Positions 3,432 through 56,643 of a DNA stretch of 64,000 bases are shown piece by piece. This DNA comes from Escherichia virus TH32. Within the stretch, counting starts at the first letter, position 1. The number at the start of each line of letters is the position of its first letter. The stretch lies in sequence record MT446405.1. The stretch is one strand, 5' to 3'. Under the pieces are notes generated by a model. The model saw nothing but the letters and a program-made list of their open reading frames with translations. It was not told where the DNA came from and searched no databases. Position numbers and translations under genes: made by a program.

Positions 3432-4970
3432 TTAAATAAGAACGTCACGACCTTCAACGCGACGCACAGCATCATCTTTAGAGTAGATTAGCGTGTATGT
3501 TGCATAGTATTCGGTGCGGTTATCGGAAGTGGTTTCAGTGTCAAAATCGACAGTCAACCAATAACCGATAGTCTCAACCTGCCGCCAAGCAGTGTTGTCA
3601 CCGGAGGTTTGCGTGATGTACTGTTTCTGAATTTCCGTCAGCGCCTTACCGACAGAGATGGTGCCGTTAACCTTCGCATTGTCAACAGCAACTTGAATCA
3701 TGGCTTGGACAGTCGCTTTGCCTTCTTCGTTTGCAGGCACGCGACCAAGATTCAAGAACATGCTGAACAGCTGAGAAGTGATAGCAGATTTAAGCCACAT
3801 CTCGTTGGCATAAGTGTTCATGTCAACTGCTGCGGTAGACCCGCCCATCAGAACACCACGCTGGAAGAACGCGAGAGTTTGACCAGCTTGCTGAGTCGCA
3901 CCGATATAGTTTGCACGGTTTTGATCAGCAGTATCTGCGCGTGAATCAGTCGATACGGTTACATTTCGCGTTTCAAACTGATAATACATGTAGTTTTGAG
4001 TTGCATTTACAGTGTTATAGTTTGTCGCCGCAAGAATTTCAGCAGGTGCCTGGTCGATGTAATCATTAGCGAGGTTAGTTGCACGGATCATCATACCAAC
4101 GCCTGAGTAACCTTTCAACGCGGTATAGTATGAGCCGATGTTGGCGAATGCAGTCGAGAACAGATACATGTACATGTTGTTCTGCGAGTGAGTCCAAGCT
4201 GCAACGGCTGTGATTTCTTCCAGCGTTCGGTCTGCTCCAGCGAAAAGGAATGAGCCAAAGTTGTTGGAAATCTCCACAGATGCTGCGATGGCTTCTACCG
4301 GACTTGCTACACCCTGGCCAGCAACCGTAACGGTGCCAGTAGTCGTCCAACCAAGCGCCTGAGATGGGTCGGTCGGTTGGCCTGTGACGTTGATAGACAG
4401 GTTGCCTGCACCAGCGGTCGAAGGCGCTGCTTCCAGCGTAAACTGCTGAGTATTAGCATTCCAATACACTTCTGCATCAGCAAGTGCAGGCACCGACGTG
4501 CCACCTTCTGCTGCGAATTTAGTATTGATTGCCGTTTCCAGAAGTTCAGCAACATTTGCCAGACTTGTCGCCGCTGAAAGGTTAATTGCGTCAGTCAGGT
4601 AGTCTGTGCCATCGTAAGTGATGCTTAAGATAGCGCCAGTAAATGCTTGAAACGTAGCAAGCACTTTAGGCTCAGTATCGCCGATAACCATTGCAGGAAT
4701 CGCCGTGGATACAACGCGAGAAAAGCTGATTGAATCAGGCGAGTTGATTTGCTTGCTGATGAATCCAAAATACAGTGCTGCGCGCTTGTATTCTTCGGAA
4801 GAAAAACCAAAATATGATCCAACGGCATCAGCAGTTGAAAATTCTGCTACAATGCCTGGCGGCAGAACTGTATTAGAAGTCATGACGCGAAGCGACAGTT
4901 TGCGAACTGCAACAGCCGCGCCTGCTCCGACCCCTGATACAATTTTAATATAACGAGATTGACTGATCAC
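3432..4970 (-). CDS. Putative tail sheath protein
   Basis: 512-aa ORF directly upstream of a tube-like gene in the structural operon. Assignment is by size and position only. Confidence 0.4.
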   Translation of the reverse strand: MISQSRYIKIVSGVGAGAAVAVRKLSLRVMTSNTVLPPGIVAEFSTADAVGSYFGFSSEEYKRAALYFGFISKQINSPDSISFSRVVSTAIPAMVIGDTEPKVLATFQAFTGAILSITYDGTDYLTDAINLSAATSLANVAELLETAINTKFAAEGGTSVPALADAEVYWNANTQQFTLEAAPSTAGAGNLSINVTGQPTDPSQALGWTTTGTVTVAGQGVASPVEAIAASVEISNNFGSFLFAGADRTLEEITAVAAWTHSQNNMYMYLFSTAFANIGSYYTALKGYSGVGMMIRATNLANDYIDQAPAEILAATNYNTVNATQNYMYYQFETRNVTVSTDSRADTADQNRANYIGATQQAGQTLAFFQRGVLMGGSTAAVDMNTYANEMWLKSAITSQLFSMFLNLGRVPANEEGKATVQAMIQVAVDNAKVNGTISVGKALTEIQKQYITQTSGDNTAWRQVETIGYWLTVDFDTETTSDNRTEYYATYTLIYSKDDAVRRVEGRDVLI

Positions 4971-9278: not shown

Positions 9279-10681
9279 GCTTCAAATGCTTCGTCAGTTG
9301 CTGCAGAATCCGCAGCGGCCTTTTGTTTTGCGACTACACGCTGTTTTTGACCGTGCTCAACGCCGCGCAGATAATTATCCACCACGTCAAACTCAGCCCC
9401 ATCAACGCACTTCAAGCCTAACTTTTTAGCGCCATATTTCGCTACGGACTTGGAGTCCATAGTTGCATGATCAAAGGCACCAACAACTTTAGACAGGCGC
9501 TGGTAGAGGCTATTCTTACGAGCAGAATCAGCGTAGAAAGCAGCAACTGCTGAATCAGATGCCATTGAGTGTTCCCCTTTTGCTGGACCTGGCGACGCTT
9601 TCGCCGCTTTTGTCGGTTTGTCATCTTTTTCGACCGAAGCCCCCTTTACGTTGCTGTTTTGCAGGCCGCTAACCACATCTTCAGCTTTGTCGCAAGGTGA
9701 TACATCTTCAGCCTTGACTTCAACTTCTTCTTCGTCTTTGACTTCGGCTTCAACTTCTTCTTCATCACCTACCGCGCCACCTTTCAGTTTTGCAATAAGT
9801 GCTTCGATTTGGCTGATCAATTGCGGAAGTTCGCCGCCAGCGTGAGATTCAGCTTCAACTTCAAACTTCTCTTCACCTTCTGGGGTTTCTTCTGCTTCTG
9901 CCTTGACTTCTGGATCAACCATTACTTCTTCACGATTTTCGGTTGAGTCCTTCTCTTCTGCTTTCACTTCAACTTCATCCTGATGAGCAGCTTCAGTACT
10001 CTCTTCGTTCAGAAATTGTTCGAGCGCAGGAATCAGTGATTTCAGCTGTTCAACAGCATTATCACGCGCTTTACCTTTTAACGGTTTTGGCATGTCTAAA
10101 TCCTCGTTGGATGGTGTTACAGTCGTCAAACAAAGATGGTCAAAGCAACGACCATCCAGCACCCGTGCACCTGGTACTCGACCAACGTCCACGAGAGCAA
10201 TGTGGTTGCCGCGAAGAGTTGTCTGCACCACTTCATACGGCTGCCCGTCAAACTCTCCAGACTGTATGATGAATTCACAGTCATAGCCCAAAGACAAGTC
10301 AACCTTTCCAGAATCAATGGCCTTCTTAAGACGACGGCTGAACACTTTAAGGTCGCCGCGCATCCATGGCTTGTCATAATAAACATTGCCAGTCAGAACG
10401 CCATCAACTCCATACTCTTCGGGTGCTGTGTTATCCTCATCACCTTCAAATCCAGAAAGCATTTCGTGATTGTCGATGAAAGGGATATTTTTGAATGAAT
10501 CTATCGCTTCGGGGTCTTTCACCGCTGACTCAGGGCGATAGACTTTTACGATGCGATTCGGATCACCATCAAGACCAACTTGACCAGCAGAATAATCAAA
10601 AATGCCAAATGACGAAATTGGACAACCCATAATCGTCAAGAATCCATTTTTGTCAATTTCGCGTGCCGTTTGCATTCGCAT
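9260..10681 (-). CDS. Scaffold-like protein with acidic low-complexity core (possible prohead protease/scaffold fusion)
   Basis: 473 aa; central run of E/V/K/A repeats (EEEVEAEVKDEEEVEVKAED) typical of scaffolding proteins; sits upstream of the capsid gene. Confidence 0.45.
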   Translation of the reverse strand: MRMQTAREIDKNGFLTIMGCPISSFGIFDYSAGQVGLDGDPNRIVKVYRPESAVKDPEAIDSFKNIPFIDNHEMLSGFEGDEDNTAPEEYGVDGVLTGNVYYDKPWMRGDLKVFSRRLKKAIDSGKVDLSLGYDCEFIIQSGEFDGQPYEVVQTTLRGNHIALVDVGRVPGARVLDGRCFDHLCLTTVTPSNEDLDMPKPLKGKARDNAVEQLKSLIPALEQFLNEESTEAAHQDEVEVKAEEKDSTENREEVMVDPEVKAEAEETPEGEEKFEVEAESHAGGELPQLISQIEALIAKLKGGAVGDEEEVEAEVKDEEEVEVKAEDVSPCDKAEDVVSGLQNSNVKGASVEKDDKPTKAAKASPGPAKGEHSMASDSAVAAFYADSARKNSLYQRLSKVVGAFDHATMDSKSVAKYGAKKLGLKCVDGAEFDVVDNYLRGVEHGQKQRVVAKQKAAADSAATDEAFEAWLKGE

Positions 10682-10779
10682 CCACCCTCAAATAAGTATT
10701 GTGTATTATATCTAATGAAAAAAACTTAGGCAAACAATAATTATGGTTTGAATATGTATAACAACCGATATAGCCGCGC

Positions 10780-11060
10780 CTTTATTAGTGTGATACGGAT
10801 GATACGGATAAAATGAGGCGTATTTTTATCCGTATCGGTGTATAAGCCGCGCTATCACTGGTGTGCTACGGATGATACGGATGATACGGATACTTTTCAT
10901 ATATAAGAGTTTATAAAAAAATAAAATTAAATTAGATATATAATTTTAAATTAATTTATTTGAATTCCTATATAGTACTGCGGCAACGCGTATCATCCGT
11001 ATCATCCGTAAGATTCTTTTGAAAACAACAACTTACTTGATACGGATGATACGTCATTAT
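10780..11060. repeat. Iteron cluster: 9-bp tandem GATACGGAT-type repeats in both orientations flanking an ~85-bp AT-rich spacer
   Basis: tgatacggatgatacggata (10791), ctacggatgatacggatgatacggatac (10866), AT-rich 10895-10975, cgtatcatccgtatcatccgtaagatt (10989), gatacggatgatacg (11039). Same motif family recurs at 26.97-27.3 kb. Confidence 0.7.
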
Positions 11061-11096
11061 ACGTATAAAACTCGCAGCAATCCTTTGCCGATGAAT

Positions 11097-11234
11097 TCAG
11101 TGAATATTAAATAGCACTCCTGCCACTAAAACGCCAATCAACATCGAGTCATAAACAGCCCATTTCCAAGAAAGCAAAGAGTTGCAATTAATATTTCGCA
11201 CTTTAACATAACGTGACTGAATAATCTTTTGCAT
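11097..11234 (-). CDS. Small hydrophobic protein (45 aa)
   Basis: Minus-strand ATG with AAGAGGAAG RBS; product MQKIIQSRYVKVRNINCNSLLSWKWAVYDSMLIGVLVAGVLFNIH has a C-terminal hydrophobic segment; below the track size cut-off. Confidence 0.3.
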   Translation of the reverse strand: MQKIIQSRYVKVRNINCNSLLSWKWAVYDSMLIGVLVAGVLFNIH

Positions 11235-11244
11235 AACTTCCTCT

Positions 11245-12165
11245 TTAGTTCAGCTTAATTGCGGTGATCTGTCCGTAAACGGTAGATGTCAACGCGTCGG
11301 TGCACTGATAGTTTAAATACACATTACCAGGCGCGGCAAGAGTAATTACTTTTGTTGGGATGTTGCCGCCGAAGCGACCTGCAGCCCGAATGCCAGCTGA
11401 CATGGCAAATGCATCATCCGTAATATCTGAATTGCTTGTTGACAATTTGACTGTAATTCCGGTATTCGCTTGAACGCCTGCTGTCGCGACAGTCAACTGA
11501 CTTGCTGTTACAAGCCATTTCCCTGCAGGAAGGTTTAAGGTTGCCAGATTGACCAAAGTTGTTGGAGGATTGCTGACGCTATTAGTGGCATTCTGGACGG
11601 TACTTGCTGCTGCATTAAGCACACCAGACCCATCAATTGATAGAGTTGTACCGACCTTTACGCCGCCTAAAGTAGATGCTGAGGCAATCGGCAATGAGTA
11701 TTGGGTGACGCTGATTGTACCATCACCTGCTACGCTTATTCCGGTGCCTATTTTGACGCCACCAAGAACGGAAGCTGTTGCCGCTGGTAACGTGTATTGG
11801 TTGCCGCTGGTTTTCACAACTTTGACTGCGACAGCGTTTTTCGACCCTCCAGACTCCATACCTATGATCACTGCTTCACCAAAAGCAATGGTGATTGTTG
11901 ATGCAGTCAAGCCAGTTTGAACGTCTGTGATGTTCATCTTAGGCACAGACAATGTCAGGTTAGGCTTGCTGGTCGAATCGCCATCATTGCCAATCATAAA
12001 GAATTGACCTACTGAGTTATACCCTGATGCAAGCGGCGGGCTCAGTGGAACAATCAAGTTTTTATCAGAAGTGAATTCTGAGACAATTGCCAAGCCATTA
12101 GCATACACCGCAGGCAAGACTGGAGTTTGTCCAGATAGAGGGAATGTGTTGATTGGTATCGTCAT
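11245..12165 (-). CDS. Fibre-like protein with tandem G/V/T-rich repeats
   Basis: Internal repeats TLPAATASVLGGVKIGTGISVAGDGTISV / SLPIASASTLGGVKVGTTLSIDGSGVLN resemble phage fibre repeat units; start moved to the internal Met (12165, RBS GAGG) to avoid overlapping the upstream gene. Confidence 0.45.
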   Translation of the reverse strand: MTIPINTFPLSGQTPVLPAVYANGLAIVSEFTSDKNLIVPLSPPLASGYNSVGQFFMIGNDGDSTSKPNLTLSVPKMNITDVQTGLTASTITIAFGEAVIIGMESGGSKNAVAVKVVKTSGNQYTLPAATASVLGGVKIGTGISVAGDGTISVTQYSLPIASASTLGGVKVGTTLSIDGSGVLNAAASTVQNATNSVSNPPTTLVNLATLNLPAGKWLVTASQLTVATAGVQANTGITVKLSTSNSDITDDAFAMSAGIRAAGRFGGNIPTKVITLAAPGNVYLNYQCTDALTSTVYGQITAIKLN

Positions 12166-15434: not shown

Positions 15435-15563
15435 TCTATATTATAAATATTCATGTGTTTGTAAGCAAATGATATGTATAGTAATCATAAATAGTTCATA
15501 AAATATTTTGCTTTTGTATCATTTTGAGTTATATTTTAGTTAACCAAACGAAAGGAGATTGAA

Positions 15564-21656: not shown

Positions 21657-21663
21657 TTCACTC

Positions 21664-21690
21664 AAGGCGCTGAAAAGCGCCTTTACTTTA
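21664..21690 (+). terminator. Putative intrinsic terminator after the tail fibre gene
   Basis: Hairpin aaggcgc-tgaaaa-gcgcctt followed by a T-rich tail (tacttta); the T-run is weak. Confidence 0.35.
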
Positions 21691-21725
21691 TGCGCTATTA
21701 AGTTATACTCATTATACGTTAACAG

Positions 21726-23285: not shown

Positions 23286-23924
23286 TGCCGCGCAGGAGTG
23301 TACTGCAAATTTCCTGTGGGTACAAAATAGTACGGTACTGTCCAGGACTTTTTCTTTGAAAAGTTAGTGGACCAAATGTGTAGTATTTTGATTAGTGTAC
23401 CGCAAATTCCATCAAGTACCAAAACGCACCAAAAGACCCATGCCATAAAAACCACACGAACGCAATAATCAATCGACGTTACAGTTTCCAGCGTTACAAT
23501 TCGAAAGCGAATGATTCGACGCATAATAATATGAAGCATAATGATTCGAAAGCAAATGATTGCGTGTAGGATAATATCGGTGGGGATTATTCTAGATGCA
23601 TGTAATTTCGCATGCGTACTATTTTCGGACGAAGGGTCGGCATATTCCTCGTTTTAGTTCGGAACGAAGGGAAAGTTTTGCGCCTTTATAAAACAACGAC
23701 TTACGCGACCCGCCCTAACGGTCCGATATAGGTGTCTATATAAAACAAGGACTTACGCGATGTTCTCCATTTAACGTAATACCTGTTATGCGAACTAAGA
23801 CGCATCTCGAAGAAGATTATGCGACGACGAAGGGAAGGATAAAGGAGTTTTCGCGTAGGAGCGCATCGAGATAGGGACGAAGAAAAGCCGCGACTAAGCG
23901 CGGCCTATTAGTAACGGAAGGGTA

Positions 23925-24215
23925 TTATAAGGAGACGATTTTAAAATAAGTTACTTCGCCGCCGAGTTGCGGTACAGCGATATATTCGCCGCCGATTTCG
24001 GTAATCGTATAAACGAAGCCGTTAATCGTTACGCGATAGGATACGATGTCCTCGTCGCGATACTTGTAAAGGTCGAGGAAGTTGATCGGCTCATAAATAG
24101 ACTCGATAATCGCGTCTACGTTAGAGAGATAAACGCTCTCTAAGGTTTCGCCAAATACGTTAGAGTTTTCGGAAGTTTCGACGCGAGCGGAACGGATAGC
24201 GGCTAAAGTAATCAT
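23925..24215 (-). CDS. Island paralog family member 1 (96 aa), unknown function
   Basis: AGGAG RBS; paralogous to 24850..25134 and 24324..24626 (shared SEN..VY..NVD..IE, F.LY, NG(F/Y), EIG blocks); own promoter-leader cassette. Confidence 0.55.
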   Translation of the reverse strand: MITLAAIRSARVETSENSNVFGETLESVYLSNVDAIIESIYEPINFLDLYKYRDEDIVSYRVTINGFVYTITEIGGEYIAVPQLGGEVTYFKIVSL

Positions 24216-24283
24216 AATAATCTCCTAGTTGGTCGGGCGGGTAGCGACCTATTCGCTACCTCATCCCCTCTCGATATAAAACA

Positions 24284-24320
24284 TTATAGTCTTAGTGTAC
24301 GAAGAAGTAAAGCACTTTTT
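24284..24320 (-). promoter_or_regulatory. Conserved promoter of paralog 1 (CTTTACTTCTTCGTACACT ... TATAAT)
   Basis: Minus-sense GTGCTTTACTTCTTCGTACACTAAGACTATAAT followed by the ATATCGAG leader; the same element precedes the other two paralogs. Confidence 0.5.
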
Positions 24321-24323
24321 TCG

Positions 24324-24626
24324 TTATTTTGCGATAAAATATTTATAAGCTTTATCGCCTTCTACGTCGATATACTCGACGATAATTAATGCTTCGCCGC
24401 GAGGCGTAACCGTCTCGATAAGGGTAACGGCTTCGTCGTCGGTCTTCGCGAAGCGGATGGCGCTACGTTCGGCGTATTTAATTTCGTCGAAGGAAAGGCC
24501 GACGAAGGCGACGGCGCGCGCTTTAATAATGCTCGTTTCGAGTTCCGCGTTAACGGCAGCGATAAGAGAGCGAACGGTTAAGCGGTCTTCGTCGTAAGTA
24601 AGGATGGAAGAGATTAAAGTAGTCAT
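24324..24626 (-). CDS. Island paralog family member 2 (about 100 aa), unknown function
   Basis: Track ORF 24324..24683; start placed at the internal Met MTTLISS (RBS GGAG) which aligns with the paralog N-termini; conserved promoter upstream. Confidence 0.5.
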   Translation of the reverse strand: MTTLISSILTYDEDRLTVRSLIAAVNAELETSIIKARAVAFVGLSFDEIKYAERSAIRFAKTDDEAVTLIETVTPRGEALIIVEYIDVEGDKAYKYFIAK

Positions 24627-24683
24627 AATAAAGCTCCCGATGCTAGTAGAAGGAAGGGCCATCGCCCGTCTCGATATAAACAA

Positions 24684-24725
24684 GTATACGCGAGTGTACG
24701 AAGAAGTAAAGAAAAAGATAAAATA
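24684..24725 (-). promoter_or_regulatory. Conserved promoter of paralog 2
   Basis: Minus-sense CTTTACTTCTTCGTACACTcgcgTATACT then tgtttATATCGAGACGGG. Confidence 0.45.
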
Positions 24726-24747
24726 ATTTATCGCATTTTTATCGAAA

Positions 24748-24790
24748 AAGTGCTTTACTTTTTTCTACACTATATTATAATGTACTCATA
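24748..24790 (+). promoter_or_regulatory. Conserved promoter of paralog 3 (divergent from the paralog 2 promoter)
   Basis: GTGCTTTACTTTTTTCTACACTatatTATAAT then gtactcATATCGGGACGGG. Confidence 0.5.
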
Positions 24791-24849
24791 TCGGGACGGG
24801 ATGAGTTAACGAATAGGTCGTTAACGCCTCTCCCAACTAGGAGTTTAAA

Positions 24850-25134
24850 ATGGCTATTCTTAACGTTTCTTCTATCCGTAACGCCATCGTCGAGAACTAC
24901 GGCGTAAAACAAAAATTATCCGAAGTCTACGCCGCGAACGTAGACCAAACTATCGAAGAGGGTGGGGTAACGGTCGCCGAGGCTTTTAAACTTTACGCGG
25001 CGTTACCGGAATCGGACCGCGAAGCCTTCGAAGTAAACGTTAACGGATACTTCTTCGAAGCGGTCGAAATCGGTAATATTTTACTCGTTATGGGCGAAGA
25101 AGAATTTGAGACCTTCTCCCTCGTCGAAGCGTAA
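24850..25134 (+). CDS. Island paralog family member 3 (94 aa), unknown function
   Basis: AGGAG RBS; clear paralogy to 23925..24215; leader carries a conserved hairpin. Confidence 0.55.
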   Translation: MAILNVSSIRNAIVENYGVKQKLSEVYAANVDQTIEEGGVTVAEAFKLYAALPESDREAFEVNVNGYFFEAVEIGNILLVMGEEEFETFSLVEA

Positions 25135-25214
25135 GAGAGGATTTTTAGAGCGTCGTGCGCGGCGCTTTAATAAAATTCTTTCGCGCCTAGCGCCCTAACA
25201 AATAGGAGTTTATT

Positions 25215-25841
25215 ATGGTTAGCTTAAATCGCTTTTCTACTAGCGGCGACGTTATCGCAACTAAGACCGCCGACCTCGTTGCATTTTACAATGCAAATTC
25301 CGGTTCGAAGCCGATTAAAAAGTTCGCTGACCGCCGGACCGCCGAGACTCGCGTAATCGCGCTAATCGAGTCCTTAAACGCGCTCGATGAGCCGTCCAAC
25401 GAATCGCCCATCCCAGACGCGAAGCCGCGCGAGGAAGTGTCCAGCGATGTAAAAACGCACAAGGCGCGTGCGGTCGTTAAAAAGGCCGAGCCGACCCAGG
25501 AAGAACTCGACGCGATGAGCGATGAAGAGTATGAAGCCTTCGTTAAGAGCGGCTTAAACGATAGTGCAAATTGCGTAGTGCAAAATGGAACTCCTTCCCA
25601 TCGCCGTTCGAATAGCGAAGGTATTGCAAAAAGTTGGGATAATAAGGAAGTGGCGCAAAAGCGTCTTACCCGTAACGGCGTTATGGTCGAGGGTGTAGGC
25701 GAGTTCAAATCGGTCCGCGTAGCATTCGCCGCGCTGGGCTTACCGGATAGCAAACACATTCGCTTCCGTATGAAGCTTAAGGAAGCTGGGCGCTTGAACT
25801 TCGAGTTCGGCAACAAGTCCTACACATTCCAGATTATCTAA
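25215..25841 (+). CDS. Hypothetical protein (208 aa)
   Basis: AGGAG RBS; shares the CG-rich codon style of the island; contains two ATAGTGCAAA boxes read as D-S-A-N-C. Confidence 0.45.
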   Translation: MVSLNRFSTSGDVIATKTADLVAFYNANSGSKPIKKFADRRTAETRVIALIESLNALDEPSNESPIPDAKPREEVSSDVKTHKARAVVKKAEPTQEELDAMSDEEYEAFVKSGLNDSANCVVQNGTPSHRRSNSEGIAKSWDNKEVAQKRLTRNGVMVEGVGEFKSVRVAFAALGLPDSKHIRFRMKLKEAGRLNFEFGNKSYTFQII

Positions 25842-25891
25842 TCGAATGGCGGCCCTTCGGGGTCGCTTTTCATAGTGCAAATTGGTGGCTT

Positions 25892-26155
25892 ATGAATACG
25901 CTTATTCTCATCGCTACGTTGTCCATCGGAAGTGGTCGCACCTTATCCCTTTACGACCATAGTGCAAATTGCGCTTACCCTACGCGCGTTGCGGCAATAG
26001 TTAATAGTGCAAATCGAATGCTATTCGAAACTTGTTGGCGGGTCGATAACGAGAAAGGGCGCATCGTCTTAGGTTATAGTGCGAATCTGCTGGTGGAGTC
26101 GTTCGATTGGACGGTTGAAGGTCGTAAATTGTTACGTAAGGTGACTAAAAGATGA
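25892..26155 (+). CDS. Questionable ORF overlapping the ATAGTGCAAAT boxes
   Basis: 87-aa ORF whose frame reads the boxes as xSAN; no convincing RBS; may be non-coding. Confidence 0.25.
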   Translation: MNTLILIATLSIGSGRTLSLYDHSANCAYPTRVAAIVNSANRMLFETCWRVDNEKGRIVLGYSANLLVESFDWTVEGRKLLRKVTKR

Positions 26156-26269
26156 CTTATAATAATACACTTTCTAACGCGTTTATGGTTGTAACCTTCC
26201 CCGTCGTATTACCGATGGCCCTAGAAGTGGAGAAAATGTGTTCTAGGGCCGTTTTATAGTGCAAATTGG

Positions 26270-26758
26270 CTAGTGGCGGGAGAATTGCTCGCCTTCTTTG
26301 GCCGCCTCTCCGAAATCCTTGTAGAAATCGTCCATGGAACGGCCCATTTTACTATTGCCGTTTTCATCAATCATCGTGATGCCGTAGATGATATTCAGTT
26401 CACGAATAGCATTAAGTTTGGCTGACGCCGCGACTTCTGGATCACGCACAAGCTTGACCAAATTGTGAATTGCACCTTTTACGCTCCACAAATCCTTGAG
26501 TGGCATCTCTTCCATACGCTTTTTGAAGCGCATTTTGTAGTATGGGTTGCGTTGCGCGCAAAGGATTCGCTGGCCAGTGTAGCTATCCGTTGCAACTTCC
26601 ATTCCAAATACTAGTGCAAAAGCTGCGCGCATGTCATGGCCCTGAATAACAAGGTCAATGAACTCATCGAATAAAGCCTGATTGTGCTCTGCAAATCGCG
26701 GGTCTTCAAAGTCTTCAGGCATCGCTACATAATCTTGACTCATAGTGCAAAATCCCAT
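26270..26758 (-). CDS. Hypothetical protein (162 aa)
   Basis: Minus-strand ORF with typical phage codon style; start region coincides with the ATAGTGCAAAT boxes, so the true start may be the second Met (MSQDY, at 26743). Confidence 0.45.
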   Translation of the reverse strand: MGFCTMSQDYVAMPEDFEDPRFAEHNQALFDEFIDLVIQGHDMRAAFALVFGMEVATDSYTGQRILCAQRNPYYKMRFKKRMEEMPLKDLWSVKGAIHNLVKLVRDPEVAASAKLNAIRELNIIYGITMIDENGNSKMGRSMDDFYKDFGEAAKEGEQFSRH

Positions 26759-26969
26759 AGTGCAAATTAATAGTGTGAATTATACAATGGATGGACATTA
26801 TATTCAAGTGCAGATTGATGTTCATTATGGCTATAAACGTACACAAATCACAGTGCTGAATGGATAACGGACCGTGGTGCGTGGTGTACTGTTTGATACG
26901 TATAAAAGAAATCCATCCCTTTTGCCGCTTGTTATGCAAATCAATGACTTAGCCGCTGCTGGCTGGTCG

Positions 26970-27300
26970 AAGCGTATCATGACGTATCATCCGTATTGCC
27001 GCAAGTCTTTGTTTTTACTTATATCTTACGGATAATACGTTAAATATATAAATTAACATAAGTATGAGGATGTAGAAAAAAATTAATTTAAATGATTTTA
27101 AAATGGAGTTAATTAATTTTTCAAATTATATATATAACGATGCCCAGTTTTATCCGTATCATCCGTAAGATTAATGTACAAGCCAGGCGCGGCAAGGGCT
27201 GTACACTGATACGGATAAAAAACCATGACGTATCATGACGTAAGGGTGTACCAATTTGGAAAGGATGAATCCAGGAACGGCGCGGCCTGTAGCCATGATA
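26970..27300. repeat. Second iteron/AT-rich region, homologous to 10780..11060
   Basis: cgtatcatgacgtatcatccgta (26975), AT-rich 27040-27140, ttatccgtatcatccgtaagatt (27149; near-identical to 10989-11015), gatacggataaaaa (27208), catgacgtatcatgacgta (27226). Confidence 0.7.
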
Positions 27301-30164: not shown

Positions 30165-30331
30165 ACTGCGTGCAATGTTTTCTGGTCAAACTTGGAAAGC
30201 GTTTCACGCTCCGAAGCCTTAAGGAATCGCGTGCCAAAGAACAACATGCCTTGCGGCGTTTTAACTAGCGACACGCCTTTGTTTCGGTAAAAGCTTACCA
30301 GTACTGATGCGTTATGGACTTCGGTGCTCAT
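30146..30331 (-). CDS. Hypothetical small protein
   Basis: 61-aa ORF overlapping neighbours. Confidence 0.3.
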   Translation of the reverse strand: MSTEVHNASVLVSFYRNKGVSLVKTPQGMLFFGTRFLKASERETLSKFDQKTLHAVWRRQP

Positions 30332-30693
30332 AACTCACCCTCTTTAAATATGAAGCCGCTGATTATGGATTGGTAGTAAGTTACGCCTTGCAACTCTACC
30401 GCCTTGCAGCGATGAGCTTGGCCCTTGTATTCTATCCACCAAACCTCCAGGTCAGGCAAATTGTCGCGACGTGTCAGCCATCCATGAAACAACTCGTATG
30501 TCTCACCGATTTTGAACGGCTTAAACACGCCGTTATAAGATTCATTCAACGCTACGCAGACGACATCATGGCTGTCCATCCAAACGCAGTCATGAAATAA
30601 TCCGCTTCTGCCAAACCTTTCGTCGTAACTCATAATCAATTCTCCTTTGCTTGATGAATTAAGTATAATACAGACAGATAAAAAGGCAAGCAC
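30328..30693 (-). CDS. Hypothetical protein
   Basis: 121-aa ORF with AAGGAG RBS directly downstream of a terminator-promoter unit. Confidence 0.45.
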   Translation of the reverse strand: MLAFLSVCIILNSSSKGELIMSYDERFGRSGLFHDCVWMDSHDVVCVALNESYNGVFKPFKIGETYELFHGWLTRRDNLPDLEVWWIEYKGQAHRCKAVELQGVTYYQSIISGFIFKEGEL

Positions 30694-30703
30694 TTAGCTC
30701 ACC
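30677..30703 (-). terminator. Intrinsic terminator (stem with G-U pairs) followed by a promoter -10
   Basis: RNA sense GGUGAGC-UAAGU-GCUUGCC + UUUUU; next to TATTATACT -10; near-identical copy at 31939..31965. Confidence 0.5.
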
Positions 30704-30711
30704 TTTTTGAA

Positions 30712-30972
30712 TTAAATGTGATCGGCTTCTTCGTGTAGACCGACTGACCTTAACTTACGCCGCAAGTAAGCTTTCTTTTCGCACTCGCGCCCGGCTGGAG
30801 TGATGCGGTACTTTAATGTGTTCTCTCTATTCTTGCGTCGGTTGTTCTCGTCGAGTAGCTCTACCAGTGCCTTTGCGTCGTCGAGTGTTAACACCACGGG
30901 CCGCGACCCATTAACGGCCTGTCGAAGCTTCCGCGCGGCAAGGGCCAGTGGCGTCATCGGACCCTTATTCAA
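30712..30972 (-). CDS. Hypothetical basic protein
   Basis: 86-aa ORF. Confidence 0.4.
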   Translation of the reverse strand: MNKGPMTPLALAARKLRQAVNGSRPVVLTLDDAKALVELLDENNRRKNRENTLKYRITPAGRECEKKAYLRRKLRSVGLHEEADHI

Positions 30973-31361
30973 GCCAGCTCCTTATTCATCGGCGTGATAG
31001 ACAACACCTTCACTTCAGTGATGTCACGGTTGTATTCGCGCTTGATTTGTAGAATCTGAGATTGAATGCGCGCAATAAAGTGAGGCGTGATTCCTTCCTT
31101 AACGTTAATCCAGGCCGCAAGCTGAATTGAGTCGATGTCGCTTCTCATGCCTGTTGGGCGGTTAATGGTACTTGGTGCGCCGTTCGCGCCGTAAGCCAGT
31201 TGGAAATCATAAGCCGAATACTTGAACGCAACCAGAAACATGCGCTCTTCAAGTTGGCTTTCGCTTCTTGGATTCTTATCGCAACCAGACATGTGCTGCA
31301 CAAACTCTTCATGAGGAAGGTGCATGACGTCGTGGCAATAAGGGCAACGTTTCATTCTCAT
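30969..31361 (-). CDS. Zinc-binding protein (Cys/His cluster)
   Basis: Track ORF 30969..31442; start moved to the internal Met MRMKRCPYCHDVMHLPHEEFVQHMSGC to give ATGA coupling with the upstream gene. Confidence 0.4.
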   Translation of the reverse strand: MRMKRCPYCHDVMHLPHEEFVQHMSGCDKNPRSESQLEERMFLVAFKYSAYDFQLAYGANGAPSTINRPTGMRSDIDSIQLAAWINVKEGITPHFIARIQSQILQIKREYNRDITEVKVLSITPMNKELA

Positions 31362-31594
31362 TTTGCATACTCCATAGCATATTGCTGCAACTTGAATGCA
31401 GCCTTTTGTAATTGTTTGCGACGCTCGTTCAACACTTCCCATTCTTCTTTAGGGCAAGCTCGAGAGTCGGCCTTGTTTGTAATCTTGATTAATGATGAAT
31501 ATGTTTGTTGAAAACGAGACACCATGCGCAACTCATTGCGCTTATTGAATGACAACTTGCCCAGCGCGGCATTCATAATTGCACCTCGACACAC
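31358..31594 (-). CDS. Hypothetical protein
   Basis: 78-aa ORF. Confidence 0.4.
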   Translation of the reverse strand: MCRGAIMNAALGKLSFNKRNELRMVSRFQQTYSSLIKITNKADSRACPKEEWEVLNERRKQLQKAAFKLQQYAMEYAK

Positions 31595-31890
31595 GATTCA
31601 CTAGCCTCGAAGCTCCAGCCATCCAGACCGACTTCGCCGCAACAGCGCACCTTTGCCCATCCAGTCATGAGCCATTCGCGGTGCATCTCGAAATACGTTG
31701 GCCTTTCTGAATAACAATGAACAAGGCCGTTATTGTCAATGGCAACGTAACGCGTCCAAGGCGCAACTGGTACAACTACGTCGGGGTGGCCATCTGGCCA
31801 AGGCTTGATGTGTACAGCTGTGTTCAAGTCTACGTTTAACACGCTTCCTAACCGCTCGTCTTGTTCCTTGTCGATGCCTAAGTAAATCAT
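31573..31890 (-). CDS. Hypothetical protein
   Basis: 105-aa ORF with GTGAGGTGA RBS downstream of the second terminator-promoter unit. Confidence 0.45.
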   Translation of the reverse strand: MIYLGIDKEQDERLGSVLNVDLNTAVHIKPWPDGHPDVVVPVAPWTRYVAIDNNGLVHCYSERPTYFEMHREWLMTGWAKVRCCGEVGLDGWSFEASESCVEVQL

Positions 31891-31938
31891 AATTCACCTC
31901 ACTTGTTCGTCTTGATGAAAAGAGTATAAGTATTGATA

Positions 31939-31965
31939 AAAGAAAAGGCAAGCATTTAGCTCACC
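31939..31965 (-). terminator. Intrinsic terminator (second copy of the GGUGAGC/GCUUGCC unit)
   Basis: RNA sense GGUGAGC-UAAAU-GCUUGCC + UUUUCUUUU, followed by TTATACT. Confidence 0.5.
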
Positions 31966-31975
31966 TTTTTGATAT

Positions 31976-32308
31976 TCATTTTACATAGTGGAGTAGGTCA
32001 ATCTCTATCTCGTGCCTTGTCCTTGTTATCTTTGTATCACCCGTCCGGTGGGAGAATTGATAGAAGAAAGAGTCTTTGTGAGCACCTCGTTCAAACGTCA
32101 TGCTGGCAATTCTGCACCCGCATATTGCATCAAGCTTTGCTCCGTTAGACAAAAGGTTGAATGTCAATACAGTGTTATCCATCCTTGCGTTTTGTTTGAT
32201 GCAAGACTTTAAGAATGCATAAGAGTCAGCAAATAATGCGTGCCTTTTACAAATCTCTTTCACCTTCTCACGCTCATGCGCGGCGAGTATCTGATCACGG
32301 GTCATCAC
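31976..32308 (-). CDS. Hypothetical protein
   Basis: 110-aa ORF. Confidence 0.4.
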   Translation of the reverse strand: MMTRDQILAAHEREKVKEICKRHALFADSYAFLKSCIKQNARMDNTVLTFNLLSNGAKLDAICGCRIASMTFERGAHKDSFFYQFSHRTGDTKITRTRHEIEIDLLHYVK

Positions 32309-45202: not shown

Positions 45203-45267
45203 TTTACTTGTGCGTTTCGATGAGTTATATTTATCTCATCGAAACGAAGTCCAAAAAGGATAAATAA

Positions 45268-52278: not shown

Positions 52279-52352
52279 TATCAAAAATAATTTGACTTGT
52301 CACGGAAGATGAGTCATAATTACTTCATCGAAACGAAACAGAGGAATACAAA

Positions 52353-56540: not shown

Positions 56541-56570
56541 AAAGCCGGTTAATCCGGCTTTTCTTTTATT
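56541..56570 (+). terminator. Intrinsic terminator
   Basis: aaagccgg-ttaat-ccggcttt hairpin followed by tcttttattt. Confidence 0.6.
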
Positions 56571-56643
56571 TACCTTTCGTCGTATTTACTTTCAAAACCT
56601 TCGGCCTATACTATTACTATTCATAATCAAAAGGTGAATTATA

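Follow-up and report, generated by a model that had tools for sequence, protein, structure and literature searches.

A conserved pair of predicted terminator-promoter units in Wifcevirus resembles the PeSL cassettes of T4-like phages

T4-like phages carry PeSLs (promoter-early stem-loops), cassettes in which a terminator and a promoter are combined (Arbiol et al. 2010, PMC2839356; Comeau et al. 2014, PMC4122927). Five positional subclasses have been described, one of which has the stem-loop overlapping the -35 element, and both terminator and promoter activity were shown in T4-like phages for PeSLs with this overlap (PMC2839356). Experimental mapping in Pseudomonas phage 14-1 (Pbunavirus) gave 26 sigma-70-like promoters and 14 terminators, with overlapping transcription units; the study says nothing of terminator-promoter units that are fused or duplicated (Putzeys et al. 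2024, PMC10914365).

We analysed a 64-kb stretch of DNA from Escherichia virus TH32 (hereafter, the window). This phage is a Wifcevirus, assigned to the Lindbergviridae (PB1-like, ∼68 kb). Replication in Wifcevirus is reported to be unusually fast, and only recently has the genus become tractable on K-12 derivatives (BASEL Bas98-101). Phage 14-1 is distantly related, has no phage RNA polymerase, and its genome is likewise punctuated by host-type promoters and terminators, but its host and promoter consensus differ from those of Wifcevirus.

The window contains a pair of units that is real and conserved but ordinary phage gene-expression punctuation, closest to the T4-like PeSL cassettes. Like PeSLs, the units lie between two small ORFans, after the stop codon of the first and before the Shine-Dalgarno sequence and start of the second. 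They join a predicted sigma-70-type promoter to a stem-loop with G-T pairs, and the overlap with the -35 matches one PeSL subclass. They also lie in a gene-variable region with adjoining insertions and allele swaps. Computationally, a properly spaced sigma-70-like -35/-10 pair stands upstream of the gene. The units differ from PeSLs in that they occur in Wifcevirus and not in T4-like phages, and in number: PeSLs occur ∼50 times per genome, concentrated in hyperplastic regions ahead of ORFans, whereas we found two sequence-related copies and two unrelated terminator-promoter junctions. Their -35 is a weak TTGCCT instead of the consensus, and a distinct AT-rich tract upstream of it appears to be lacking because the hairpin occupies that space: the loop and 5' arm come first, and AT-richness is limited to an AAAAA tract and the flanking AATATC / TTAATTC. 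Finally, the units show no demonstrable concentration of recombination. The units, which stand on a leftward block of small genes, are probably PeSL-like composite intrinsic terminator/sigma-70 promoter cassettes.

A duplicated mosaic unit

A pattern search of the window returned two 28-nt copies of AAAAAGGTGAGCTAARTGCTTGCCTTTT, both on the minus strand, at 31943-31970 (copy A) and 30681-30708 (copy B), and no third copy at up to 3 mismatches. The pattern had 0 matches in 100 dinucleotide shuffles, and 0 are expected by chance. Across the 28-nt hairpin, the copies differ at one loop position. A repeat search of the window recovered the same pair (family D17; 30 nt, 97% identity, spacing 1262). 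The first-pass annotation had described a near-identical pair of ∼45 bp: the duplication stands, but the near-identical core is shorter, ∼30 nt (29/30).

The whole unit, ∼85–90 nt, is a mosaic of identical blocks alternating with diverged linkers. Its parts run in the order stop codon, A-tract, 7-bp stem, 5-nt loop, U-run, TATACT, TTCATCAAG, Shine-Dalgarno sequence and ATG. Copies A and B are alike at 29/30 positions in the hairpin with its tracts, 6/6 in TATACT and 9/9 in TTCATCAAG, versus 6/14 in the spacer, 0/3 in the discriminator and 5/23 in the 5' UTR. The features are:

31976-31978, minus strand: TGA stop codon ending the upstream gene (31976-32308), 5 nt ahead of the copy A A-tract
31943-31970, minus strand: copy A hairpin, with A-tract 31970-31966, 5' arm GGTGAGC 31965-31959, loop TAAAT 31958-31954, 3' arm GCTTGCC 31953-31947 and U-run 31946-31943, running on as CUUUUAUC
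31923-31951, minus strand: predicted sigma-70-type promoter of copy A, with -35 TTGCCT 31951-31946, a 17-nt spacer and -10 TATACT 31928-31923
31911-31919, minus strand: copy A start-site block TTCATCAAG, with the predicted transcription start A at 31916, 7 nt past the -10
31888-31900, minus strand: Shine-Dalgarno GAGGTG 31900-31895 and ATG 31890-31888 of the 105-aa gene 31573-31890
30712-31890, minus strand: four-gene module between the units (31573-31890, 31358-31576, 30969-31352 and 30712-30972; function unknown)
30681-30708, minus strand: copy B hairpin, with A-tract 30708-30704, 5' arm GGTGAGC 30703-30697, loop TAAGT 30696-30692, 3' arm GCTTGCC 30691-30685 and U-run 30684-30680
30662-30689, minus strand: predicted sigma-70-type promoter of copy B, with -35 TTGCCT 30689-30684, a 16-nt spacer and -10 TATACT 30667-30662
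30650-30658, minus strand: copy B start-site block TTCATCAAG, with the predicted transcription start A at 30655
30631-30647, minus strand: Shine-Dalgarno AAGGAG 30647-30642 and ATG 30633-30631 of the 101-aa gene 30328-30633

We rejected a coding reading of unit B as part of a GTG-start ORF (30328-30693), because WFC, IMGVR and ECP_SA1 carry a 1-nt indel between the Shine-Dalgarno sequence and the ATG. The GTG start that the kaset and AV128 records place inside the hairpin is an annotation artefact, now corrected.

The hairpin and its terminator-like features

In minus-sense RNA the repeat folds as AAAAAGGUGAGC-UAARU-GCUUGCCUUUUU. This stem-loop, which contains the -35 in its 3' arm, has a folding energy of -13.7 kcal/mol in copy A (z = -4.0) and -14.7 kcal/mol in copy B (z = -3.97), and 0/200 shuffles folded equally well. 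Folding is poorer for the plus-sense RNA (-9.7 and -11.0 kcal/mol, z = -2.3 and -3.1), since the two G-U pairs turn into A-C mismatches there. The strand-specific fold, with z near -4, bears out the G-U-containing hairpin that the first-pass annotation had placed in the minus-sense RNA; the U-run, the -10-like TATACT, the Shine-Dalgarno sequence (GAGGTG or AAGGAG) and the ATG follow 3' of it, as described there.

Both copies have the makings of an intrinsic terminator: a G+C-containing stem, a loop in the 3–8-nt range, a U-run 0–2 nt off the stem and a position on the transcribed strand 3' of a gene. Scores of the d'Aubenton-Carafa type were positive (+6.3 and +8.7; rough values), and a terminator scanner of the window reported copy A. 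The WFC record gives 'putative transcriptional terminator, -10.10', from ARNold, at both orthologous sites, and both hairpins are already marked as putative terminators in the WFC and WFH records (ARNold-based). With canonical Rho-independent terminators the units share the short stem, the 5-nt loop, the 4–5 U directly after it and the complementary A-tract before it; they differ by a G-C-poor stem and by a 3' arm that doubles as the promoter -35. The stem is made of 4 G-C, 2 G-U and 1 A-U pairs, with a core energy of -8.7 kcal/mol. Termination may therefore be weak, and the U-run could be partly sequestered by pairing with the A-tract. Rfam families gave no match in the window at gathering score (only a sub-threshold MicX hit, 21 bits versus 75), and the window contains no tRNAs.

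A stable strand-specific hairpin directly after a stop codon could also serve in RNA processing or stability: instead of stopping polymerase, it would block a nuclease or be cleaved by one inside a long polycistronic transcript and so shape the 3' ends and half-lives of the upstream messages. Phage early mRNAs, for example those of T7, do undergo processing between genes. However, the helix is merely 7–12 bp and typical RNase III substrates are longer, the U-run and A-tract are the canonical context of an intrinsic terminator, ARNold calls a terminator at the hairpin, and processing would leave the conserved -10 and start blocks unexplained. We consider this explanation highly improbable.

Predicted promoter elements and genus-wide conservation

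Exactly two copies of the unit were present in 28/28 GenBank Wifcevirus genomes, and likewise in the complete-genome contigs of IMG/VR and in one 68.5-kb metagenome contig. In 15 genomes (30 copies), the stem, -35, -10 and start-site block did not vary; the loop, spacer and discriminator did. The stems were identical in 30/30 GenBank copies and in the complete Wifcevirus contigs of IMG/VR and metagenomes, and so carry no covariation. In alignments of 12 and 11 collinear genomes, 4/60 and 6/59 columns of the elements were variable versus 80/268 and 98/330 columns of the flanks (Fisher p = 7e-5 and 1e-3), and none of the variable columns fell in the stem, -35 or -10. These comparisons show genus-wide purifying selection on exactly the predicted terminator and promoter positions.

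Blastn ('distant') against 50,697 phage records found the unit only in Wifcevirus. The same search also gave a 36-nt AT-rich match in two Acinetobacter phages. A hairpin scan of IMG/VR found only Wifcevirus contigs, apart from an unrelated hairpin beside tRNA genes and two other unrelated hairpins. A metagenome scan, whose pattern left the 5' arm and loop free and fixed only TTGCC of the 3' arm, found Wifcevirus and one hairpin-free match, as expected by chance. A host origin was rejected (no match in 5,426 E. coli genomes), as was a MITE- or REP-like mobile repeat: throughout the genus the two copies keep their fixed orthologous positions, each with its own spacer.

A promoter scan located a -35-like TTGCCT in the hairpin's 3' arm; the spacer between it and the downstream TATACT is 17 nt in copy A and 16 nt in copy B. 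The predicted terminator and promoter are thus physically fused. The -35 inside the hairpin, the genus-wide pair and the mosaic gene setting were all absent from the first-pass annotation. The pattern TT[GT][AC][CT]T-N16-17-TATA[AC]T (TTKMYT-N16-17-TATAMT), which was defined partly after some of its members had been seen, matched 14 times in 64 kb versus 0.30 expected. Both units are included, and all 14 promoter-like sites are intergenic and oriented toward the next gene. TTGCCT also serves as the -35 at two hairpin-free members, +18063 and -10733. Further terminator-then-promoter junctions, unrelated in sequence to the units, lie at +21660-21709 and +56550-56612. A generic promoter scan was not enriched (29 matches versus 26.9 in shuffles), so a 9/12 consensus match alone means little; and since the -35 is confounded with the hairpin, its conservation gives the promoter no independent support. 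The promoter prediction rests on the block identity of copies A and B, with its diverged spacer, and on membership of the 14-site set.

The units might instead be terminators or attenuators only, in which TTGCCT...TATACT is no working promoter, the downstream genes are expressed by read-through, and some other role, such as a leader RNA or a motif bound by protein, keeps TATACT and TTCATCAAG conserved. Shuffled sequence gives 9/12-level matches just as often, the -35 matches at only 4/6 positions and is dictated by the stem, and others have annotated the terminator half alone. Yet the blocks conserved between A and B are exactly the -35, the -10 and the expected start, and the spacer keeps its length of 16–17 nt while its sequence has diverged. 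Membership of the correctly oriented, intergenic set likewise argues for promoters. In addition, the genes lie up to 8–12 kb from the nearest upstream promoters (-38092 and -39233), behind two terminators, and would be poorly expressed without re-initiation. A terminator-only function is therefore quite unlikely.

The same palindrome could be read as DNA. Its half-sites, AAAAAGGTGAGC and AAAAAGGCAAGC, are alike at 10/12 positions, and a phage or host regulator that bound this 29-bp imperfect palindrome on the -35 would switch both promoters together, with the RNA hairpin incidental. The inverted repeat does overlap the -35, and the same sequence stands at two promoters without variation in the genus, as a shared operator predicts. 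However, in the sense RNA the two non-Watson-Crick positions are G-U pairs, where the antisense RNA has A-C, the sense strand folds 3–5 kcal/mol better, and the U-run directly after the fold is an intrinsic-terminator signature. Moreover, the palindrome is missing from the other 12 promoters of the set. No regulator is identifiable either: the flanking genes had no Pfam matches and matched only two PHROG families, both of unknown function (the 105-aa gene after copy A matches phrog_1972). We thus regard an operator as very unlikely, and retain the fused terminator and promoter as the preferred reading.

Proposed transcription units and gene mosaicism

The fused cassettes would work as follows. 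Polymerase arriving from upstream would transcribe the A-tract, the hairpin and the U-run. As a Rho-independent terminator of modest strength, these would end a fraction of the transcripts at the unit, with a 3' hairpin. On the same DNA, a host sigma-70 promoter would use TTGCCT in the 3' arm and TATACT 16–17 nt downstream, and re-initiation would occur ∼7 nt past the -10, within the conserved TTCATCAAG. In the new transcript, the next gene would have a 22–27-nt leader that includes a strong Shine-Dalgarno sequence. The two units would divide a gene string of ∼12 kb (39.2 to 27.1 kb) into transcription units that are insulated and driven separately, and would bracket a variable module of 4–7 genes. 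The first-pass annotation had read the elements as segmenting the transcription of an early operon. That reading is partly supported, in that the terminator-promoter-RBS architecture held on every in silico test available; we infer termination, initiation, the start site and early timing at the units, the 'early' label from the host-type promoters and small ORFan genes.

For part of a coliphage genus that has been little studied, this arrangement offers a concrete, testable map of transcription units. The 14-site host-type promoter set and the four terminator-promoter junctions can guide annotation and engineering. The pair suggests that compact fused terminator/promoter cassettes like the PeSLs are present in at least one lineage of phages other than the T4-like ones; general concepts are unchanged by the finding.

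Among relatives, the distance from A to B ranges from 1252 to 2700 nt. Four distinct insertion or allele-swap events adjoin the units, and indels occur at most gene junctions downstream of them. In WFC and Bas100, an extra gene is flanked by a 21-nt duplication of the unit's 5' half (AAATGAATATCAAAAAGGTGA, 31981-31961). A recombination hot-spot as a demonstrated property of the units was rejected: the four-gamete and breakpoint survey found a violation across copy A and equal violations at two element-free junctions inside the module. As a secondary and weaker suggestion, conserved islands between divergent genes may serve as crossover points for module exchange. More specifically, the directly repeated units might be recombination substrates that make the bracketed 4–7-gene block an exchangeable cassette; crossovers in the invariant 30-nt core, or in its 21-nt 5' half, would load, unload or circularise accessory genes. 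We consider this cassette exchange unlikely; if true, the PeSL 'mobile regulatory cassette / mini-circle' mechanism would reach beyond T4-like phages to an unrelated, PB1-like lineage.

A search of IMG/VR for distant relatives through the flanking proteins found only close relatives. By tblastn, homologues of the gene after copy A, 30–38% identical, were found in siphophages such as CAjan and Seurat.

A duplicated hairpin and promoter-like unit

The 28-nt pattern AAAAAGGTGAGCTAARTGCTTGCCTTTT occurs twice in the window, on the minus strand at 31943-31970 (copy A) and 30681-30708 (copy B). No further copy was found in the window at ≤3 mismatches and none arose in 100 shuffles; a repeat search also grouped the pair (family D17). 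Both copies lie within a series of small minus-strand genes, packed closely together, that starts at a divergent promoter region at ~39.2 kb and runs down to ~27.1 kb, the right physical genome end, adjoining the terminal repeat.

In the gene-sense RNA, both copies fold into a 7-bp core stem (GGUGAGC/GCUUGCC) with two G-U pairs and a 5-nt loop, lengthened by A-U pairs. Folding yields -14.7 and -13.7 kcal/mol (z ~-4; equally stable shuffles, 0/200); in the antisense RNA the G-U pairs turn into A-C mismatches, which costs 3-5 kcal/mol of stability. The hairpin leads directly into a U-run, beyond which lie TATACT, the conserved block TTCATCAAG, a Shine-Dalgarno and the ATG, in that order. Thus, the duplicated minus-strand hairpin of the first-pass annotation was recovered, as were the U-run, -10-like element and ribosome binding site at both copies. 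The near-identity it put at ~45 bp shrinks to a core of only ~30 nt; across the whole unit of 85-90 nt, identical blocks alternate with linkers that have diverged. The hairpin's 3' arm contains a -35-like TTGCCT, 17 nt (A) and 16 nt (B) upstream of TATACT.

The feature is real, and the first-pass reading as terminator-promoter units appears essentially right. We would refine it by placing the -35 inside the hairpin and by viewing the units, which bracket a variable module of four small genes (30712-31890), as cassettes resembling the promoter-early stem-loops (PeSLs) of T4-like phages.

Terminator and promoter evidence

The terminator half of the unit is already annotated in two public records: the deposited WFC record labels both orthologous hairpins "putative transcriptional terminator, -10.10" (for its terminator predictions, the WFC genome paper refers to ARNold), and a terminator is also marked at the copy B site in the WFH records. 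A consensus scanner classed copy A as terminator-like. A rough d'Aubenton-Carafa-type score was positive at both hairpins (+6.3 and +8.7), resembling other candidate terminators of the phage. The hairpins might instead serve RNA processing or stability; however, the helix is short and the context is that of a canonical terminator. As the stem is modest (core dG -8.7 kcal/mol), our cautious expectation for these predicted terminators is partial termination.

Matches to 9/12 positions of the sigma-70 consensus numbered 29 in 16 kb versus 26.9 in shuffles, so such a match alone is no evidence of a promoter. On a rival reading, the units are just terminators and the promoter match is fortuitous. 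The distribution of conserved blocks between A and B opposes this: identity is 29/30 over the hairpin and -35, 6/6 at the -10 and 9/9 in the block of the expected start site, while the spacer (6/14), discriminator (0/3) and leader (5/23) have diverged, the spacer keeping a length of 16-17 nt in both copies. Membership of both units in the phage's own promoter set also speaks against a terminator-only reading. The pattern TT[GT][AC][CT]T-N16-17-TATA[AC]T has 14 sites in the window, where Markov-1 simulations predict 0.30 (maximum 2 in 200); it was partly shaped by examples already seen, yet several members were new finds. All 14 sites, units A and B included, are intergenic and oriented toward the next gene, and TTGCCT is also the -35 of two hairpin-free members, +18063 and -10733. 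A palindromic operator on the -35 would be a further reading of the hairpin, but the G-U pairing is strand-asymmetric, a U-run follows, and the palindrome is absent from the other 12 promoters of the set. The case for predicted promoters at A and B rests on the two-copy comparison and on the promoter set.

Two further members of the set lie directly behind terminator-like hairpins that are unrelated in sequence to A and B:

21660-21709, plus strand: terminator-promoter junction; GGCGCTGAAAAGCGCC abuts the -35 TTTACT, and TATACT follows
56550-56612, plus strand: terminator-promoter junction; 24 nt separate AAAGCCGGTTAATCCGGCTTTT from the -35 TTTACT, and TATACT follows

With four such junctions in one genome, a terminator followed by a promoter would be a recurrent design of this phage, A and B being the sole sequence-duplicate pair among them.

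Conservation and mosaicism in Wifcevirus

A 5-kb query around the units matched 28 phage records at 80-95% identity, all of them Wifcevirus, myophages of Escherichia or Shigella (including WFC, WFH, ECML-117, FEC19, Mansfield and Bas98-101; genome size 67-72 kb; family Lindbergviridae, PB1-like phages, per one record). Exactly two places matched the unit in 28/28 GenBank records. We retrieved 14 related genomes and compared 30 unit copies. The stem, -35, -10 and TTCATCAAG were invariant, with the sole exception of a G-to-T change at the last base in one unverified record; variation was confined to the discriminator, a handful of spacer positions and the loop, which reads TAAAT, TAAGT or TATAT. 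Since stems never vary, covariation neither supports nor opposes the RNA structure. The copy A-specific and copy B-specific spacers are each conserved genus-wide, so the duplication is older than the sampled radiation.

In collinear alignments, variable columns were 4/60 in the element versus 80/268 in the flank at A (Fisher p 7e-5) and 6/59 versus 98/330 at B (p 1e-3); the conserved island at A reaches partway into the 3' end of the upstream gene. This conservation argues that the units are under selection. Scans of IMG/VR and metagenomes contributed nothing to this comparison beyond further identical Wifcevirus copies, similar sequence was not found in E. coli genomes, no Rfam family matched the units, and the proteins flanking them had no match of known function. 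A mobile repeat was rejected, as the units hold fixed orthologous positions across the genus.

A GTG-start ORF through unit B (30328-30693) was also rejected: a 1-nt indel between the copy B Shine-Dalgarno and ATG breaks its frame in WFC, IMGVR and ECP_SA1. The GTG extension is thus an annotation artefact and the true start the ATG at 30633. The extension appears in the kaset (4524-4880) and AV128 (4524-4886) records, where the gene downstream of unit B begins with a GTG in the hairpin loop.

The A-to-B distance varies from 1252 to 2700 nt among relatives, and four distinct gene insertion or replacement events abut the units. In WFC and Bas100, an additional gene of 64 aa precedes copy A. The 5' half of the unit, AAATGAATATCAAAAAGGTGA (21 nt), is directly duplicated on either side of that gene, whose Shine-Dalgarno is provided by the hairpin 5' arm. 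CWP003 has an extra gene just after the copy A Shine-Dalgarno and ATG, a 1.4-kb three-gene insertion in RCIP0319 stops precisely where the copy B hairpin begins on its 5' side, and FEC19 and Bas99 have a different gene after copy B. The genes neighbouring copy A exist as alleles ~25% divergent in nucleotide sequence, present in all four combinations, and the 74-nt unit between them is 97-100% identical. To judge from these sequences, the units have clearly been crossed over. In a gene-by-gene allele table, four-gamete violations were equal at two element-free junctions inside the module, and indels occur at most junctions further downstream. Thus, the units lie within a hypervariable region and are at most candidates for preferred crossover sites.

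The gene after unit A (31573-31890, minus strand; 105 aa, phrog_1972) falls into two allele groups within the genus, with ~65% identical protein. Unrelated siphophages, CAjan and Seurat among them, encode homologues with 30-38% identity, which marks the gene as a horizontally shared ORFan.

Relation to known cassettes and other signals

The closest described class is the PeSL, a composite cassette of sigma-70 promoter and stem-loop terminator located between ORFans (PMC2839356, PMC4122927). In some PeSLs the stem-loop overlaps the -35; stems often contain G-T pairs, and both activities have been demonstrated (PMC2839356). PeSLs have also been proposed to take part in modular shuffling and to form mini-circles (PMC2839356, PMC4122927). 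Units A and B resemble PeSLs in anatomy and setting, as read from sequence. However, they occur in Wifcevirus rather than T4-like phages, in two copies versus ~50, with a weak -35 and without a clear AT-rich upstream tract, and a role in recombination would be no more than a possibility for them. We therefore file the units as putative PeSL-like composites of terminator and promoter in a new lineage, not as PeSLs proper. The long-read transcriptome of Pseudomonas phage 14-1, only distantly related to TH32, consists of overlapping transcription units with 26 mapped sigma-70-like promoters and 14 mapped terminators (PMC10914365), making punctuation by terminators and promoters plausible in Wifcevirus.

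Partial matches occur elsewhere. Metagenome contig Ga0123357_10240658 (~212-252) carries TTGCCT-17-TATACT-ATT-TTCATCAAG upstream of a gene, without a hairpin; about one such match is expected by chance in that collection. Two Acinetobacter phages of ~103 kb (PQ859668.1, 93386-93421; PV611675.1, 90875-90910) match the -35-to-discriminator part of unit B over 36 nt (88.9% identity, E = 4e-4), probably a convergent AT-rich promoter.

Within the window, the repeated 30-nt motif GATGAGTTATATTTATCTCATCGAAACGAA, with a small GATGAG/CTCATC inverted repeat, lies on the plus strand in gaps between structural genes (45219-45248, 52308-52337 and, weaker, 15523-15552) and may act in middle or late regulation. 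Six copies of the 15-nt motif ACGGATGATACGGAT are present at ≤2 mismatches versus 0.06 expected: five (10795-11009), on both strands, cluster in a 563-nt non-coding gap (10681-11245), and the sixth (27152-27166) is found ~50 nt beyond the boundary of the terminal repeat. The motif could serve as an iteron or origin, or as a repeat related to packaging.

Window ~23430-27104 is the counterpart of the phage's direct terminal repeat. The Mansfield record, for which PhageTerm predicts a repeat of 3,673 bp, has its position 1 aligned to 27104, and the SP13 record, with both repeat copies, begins there too; thus, the window is circularly permuted and runs across the physical genome ends. The repeat holds three paralogous strong promoter-like sites (24283-24311 and 24683-24710, minus strand; 24754-24781, plus strand), two of them divergently arranged, that share TTTACTTCTTCGTACACT and a conserved leader, TTTATATCGAGAsGGG. 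These are likely the first promoters used after injection.
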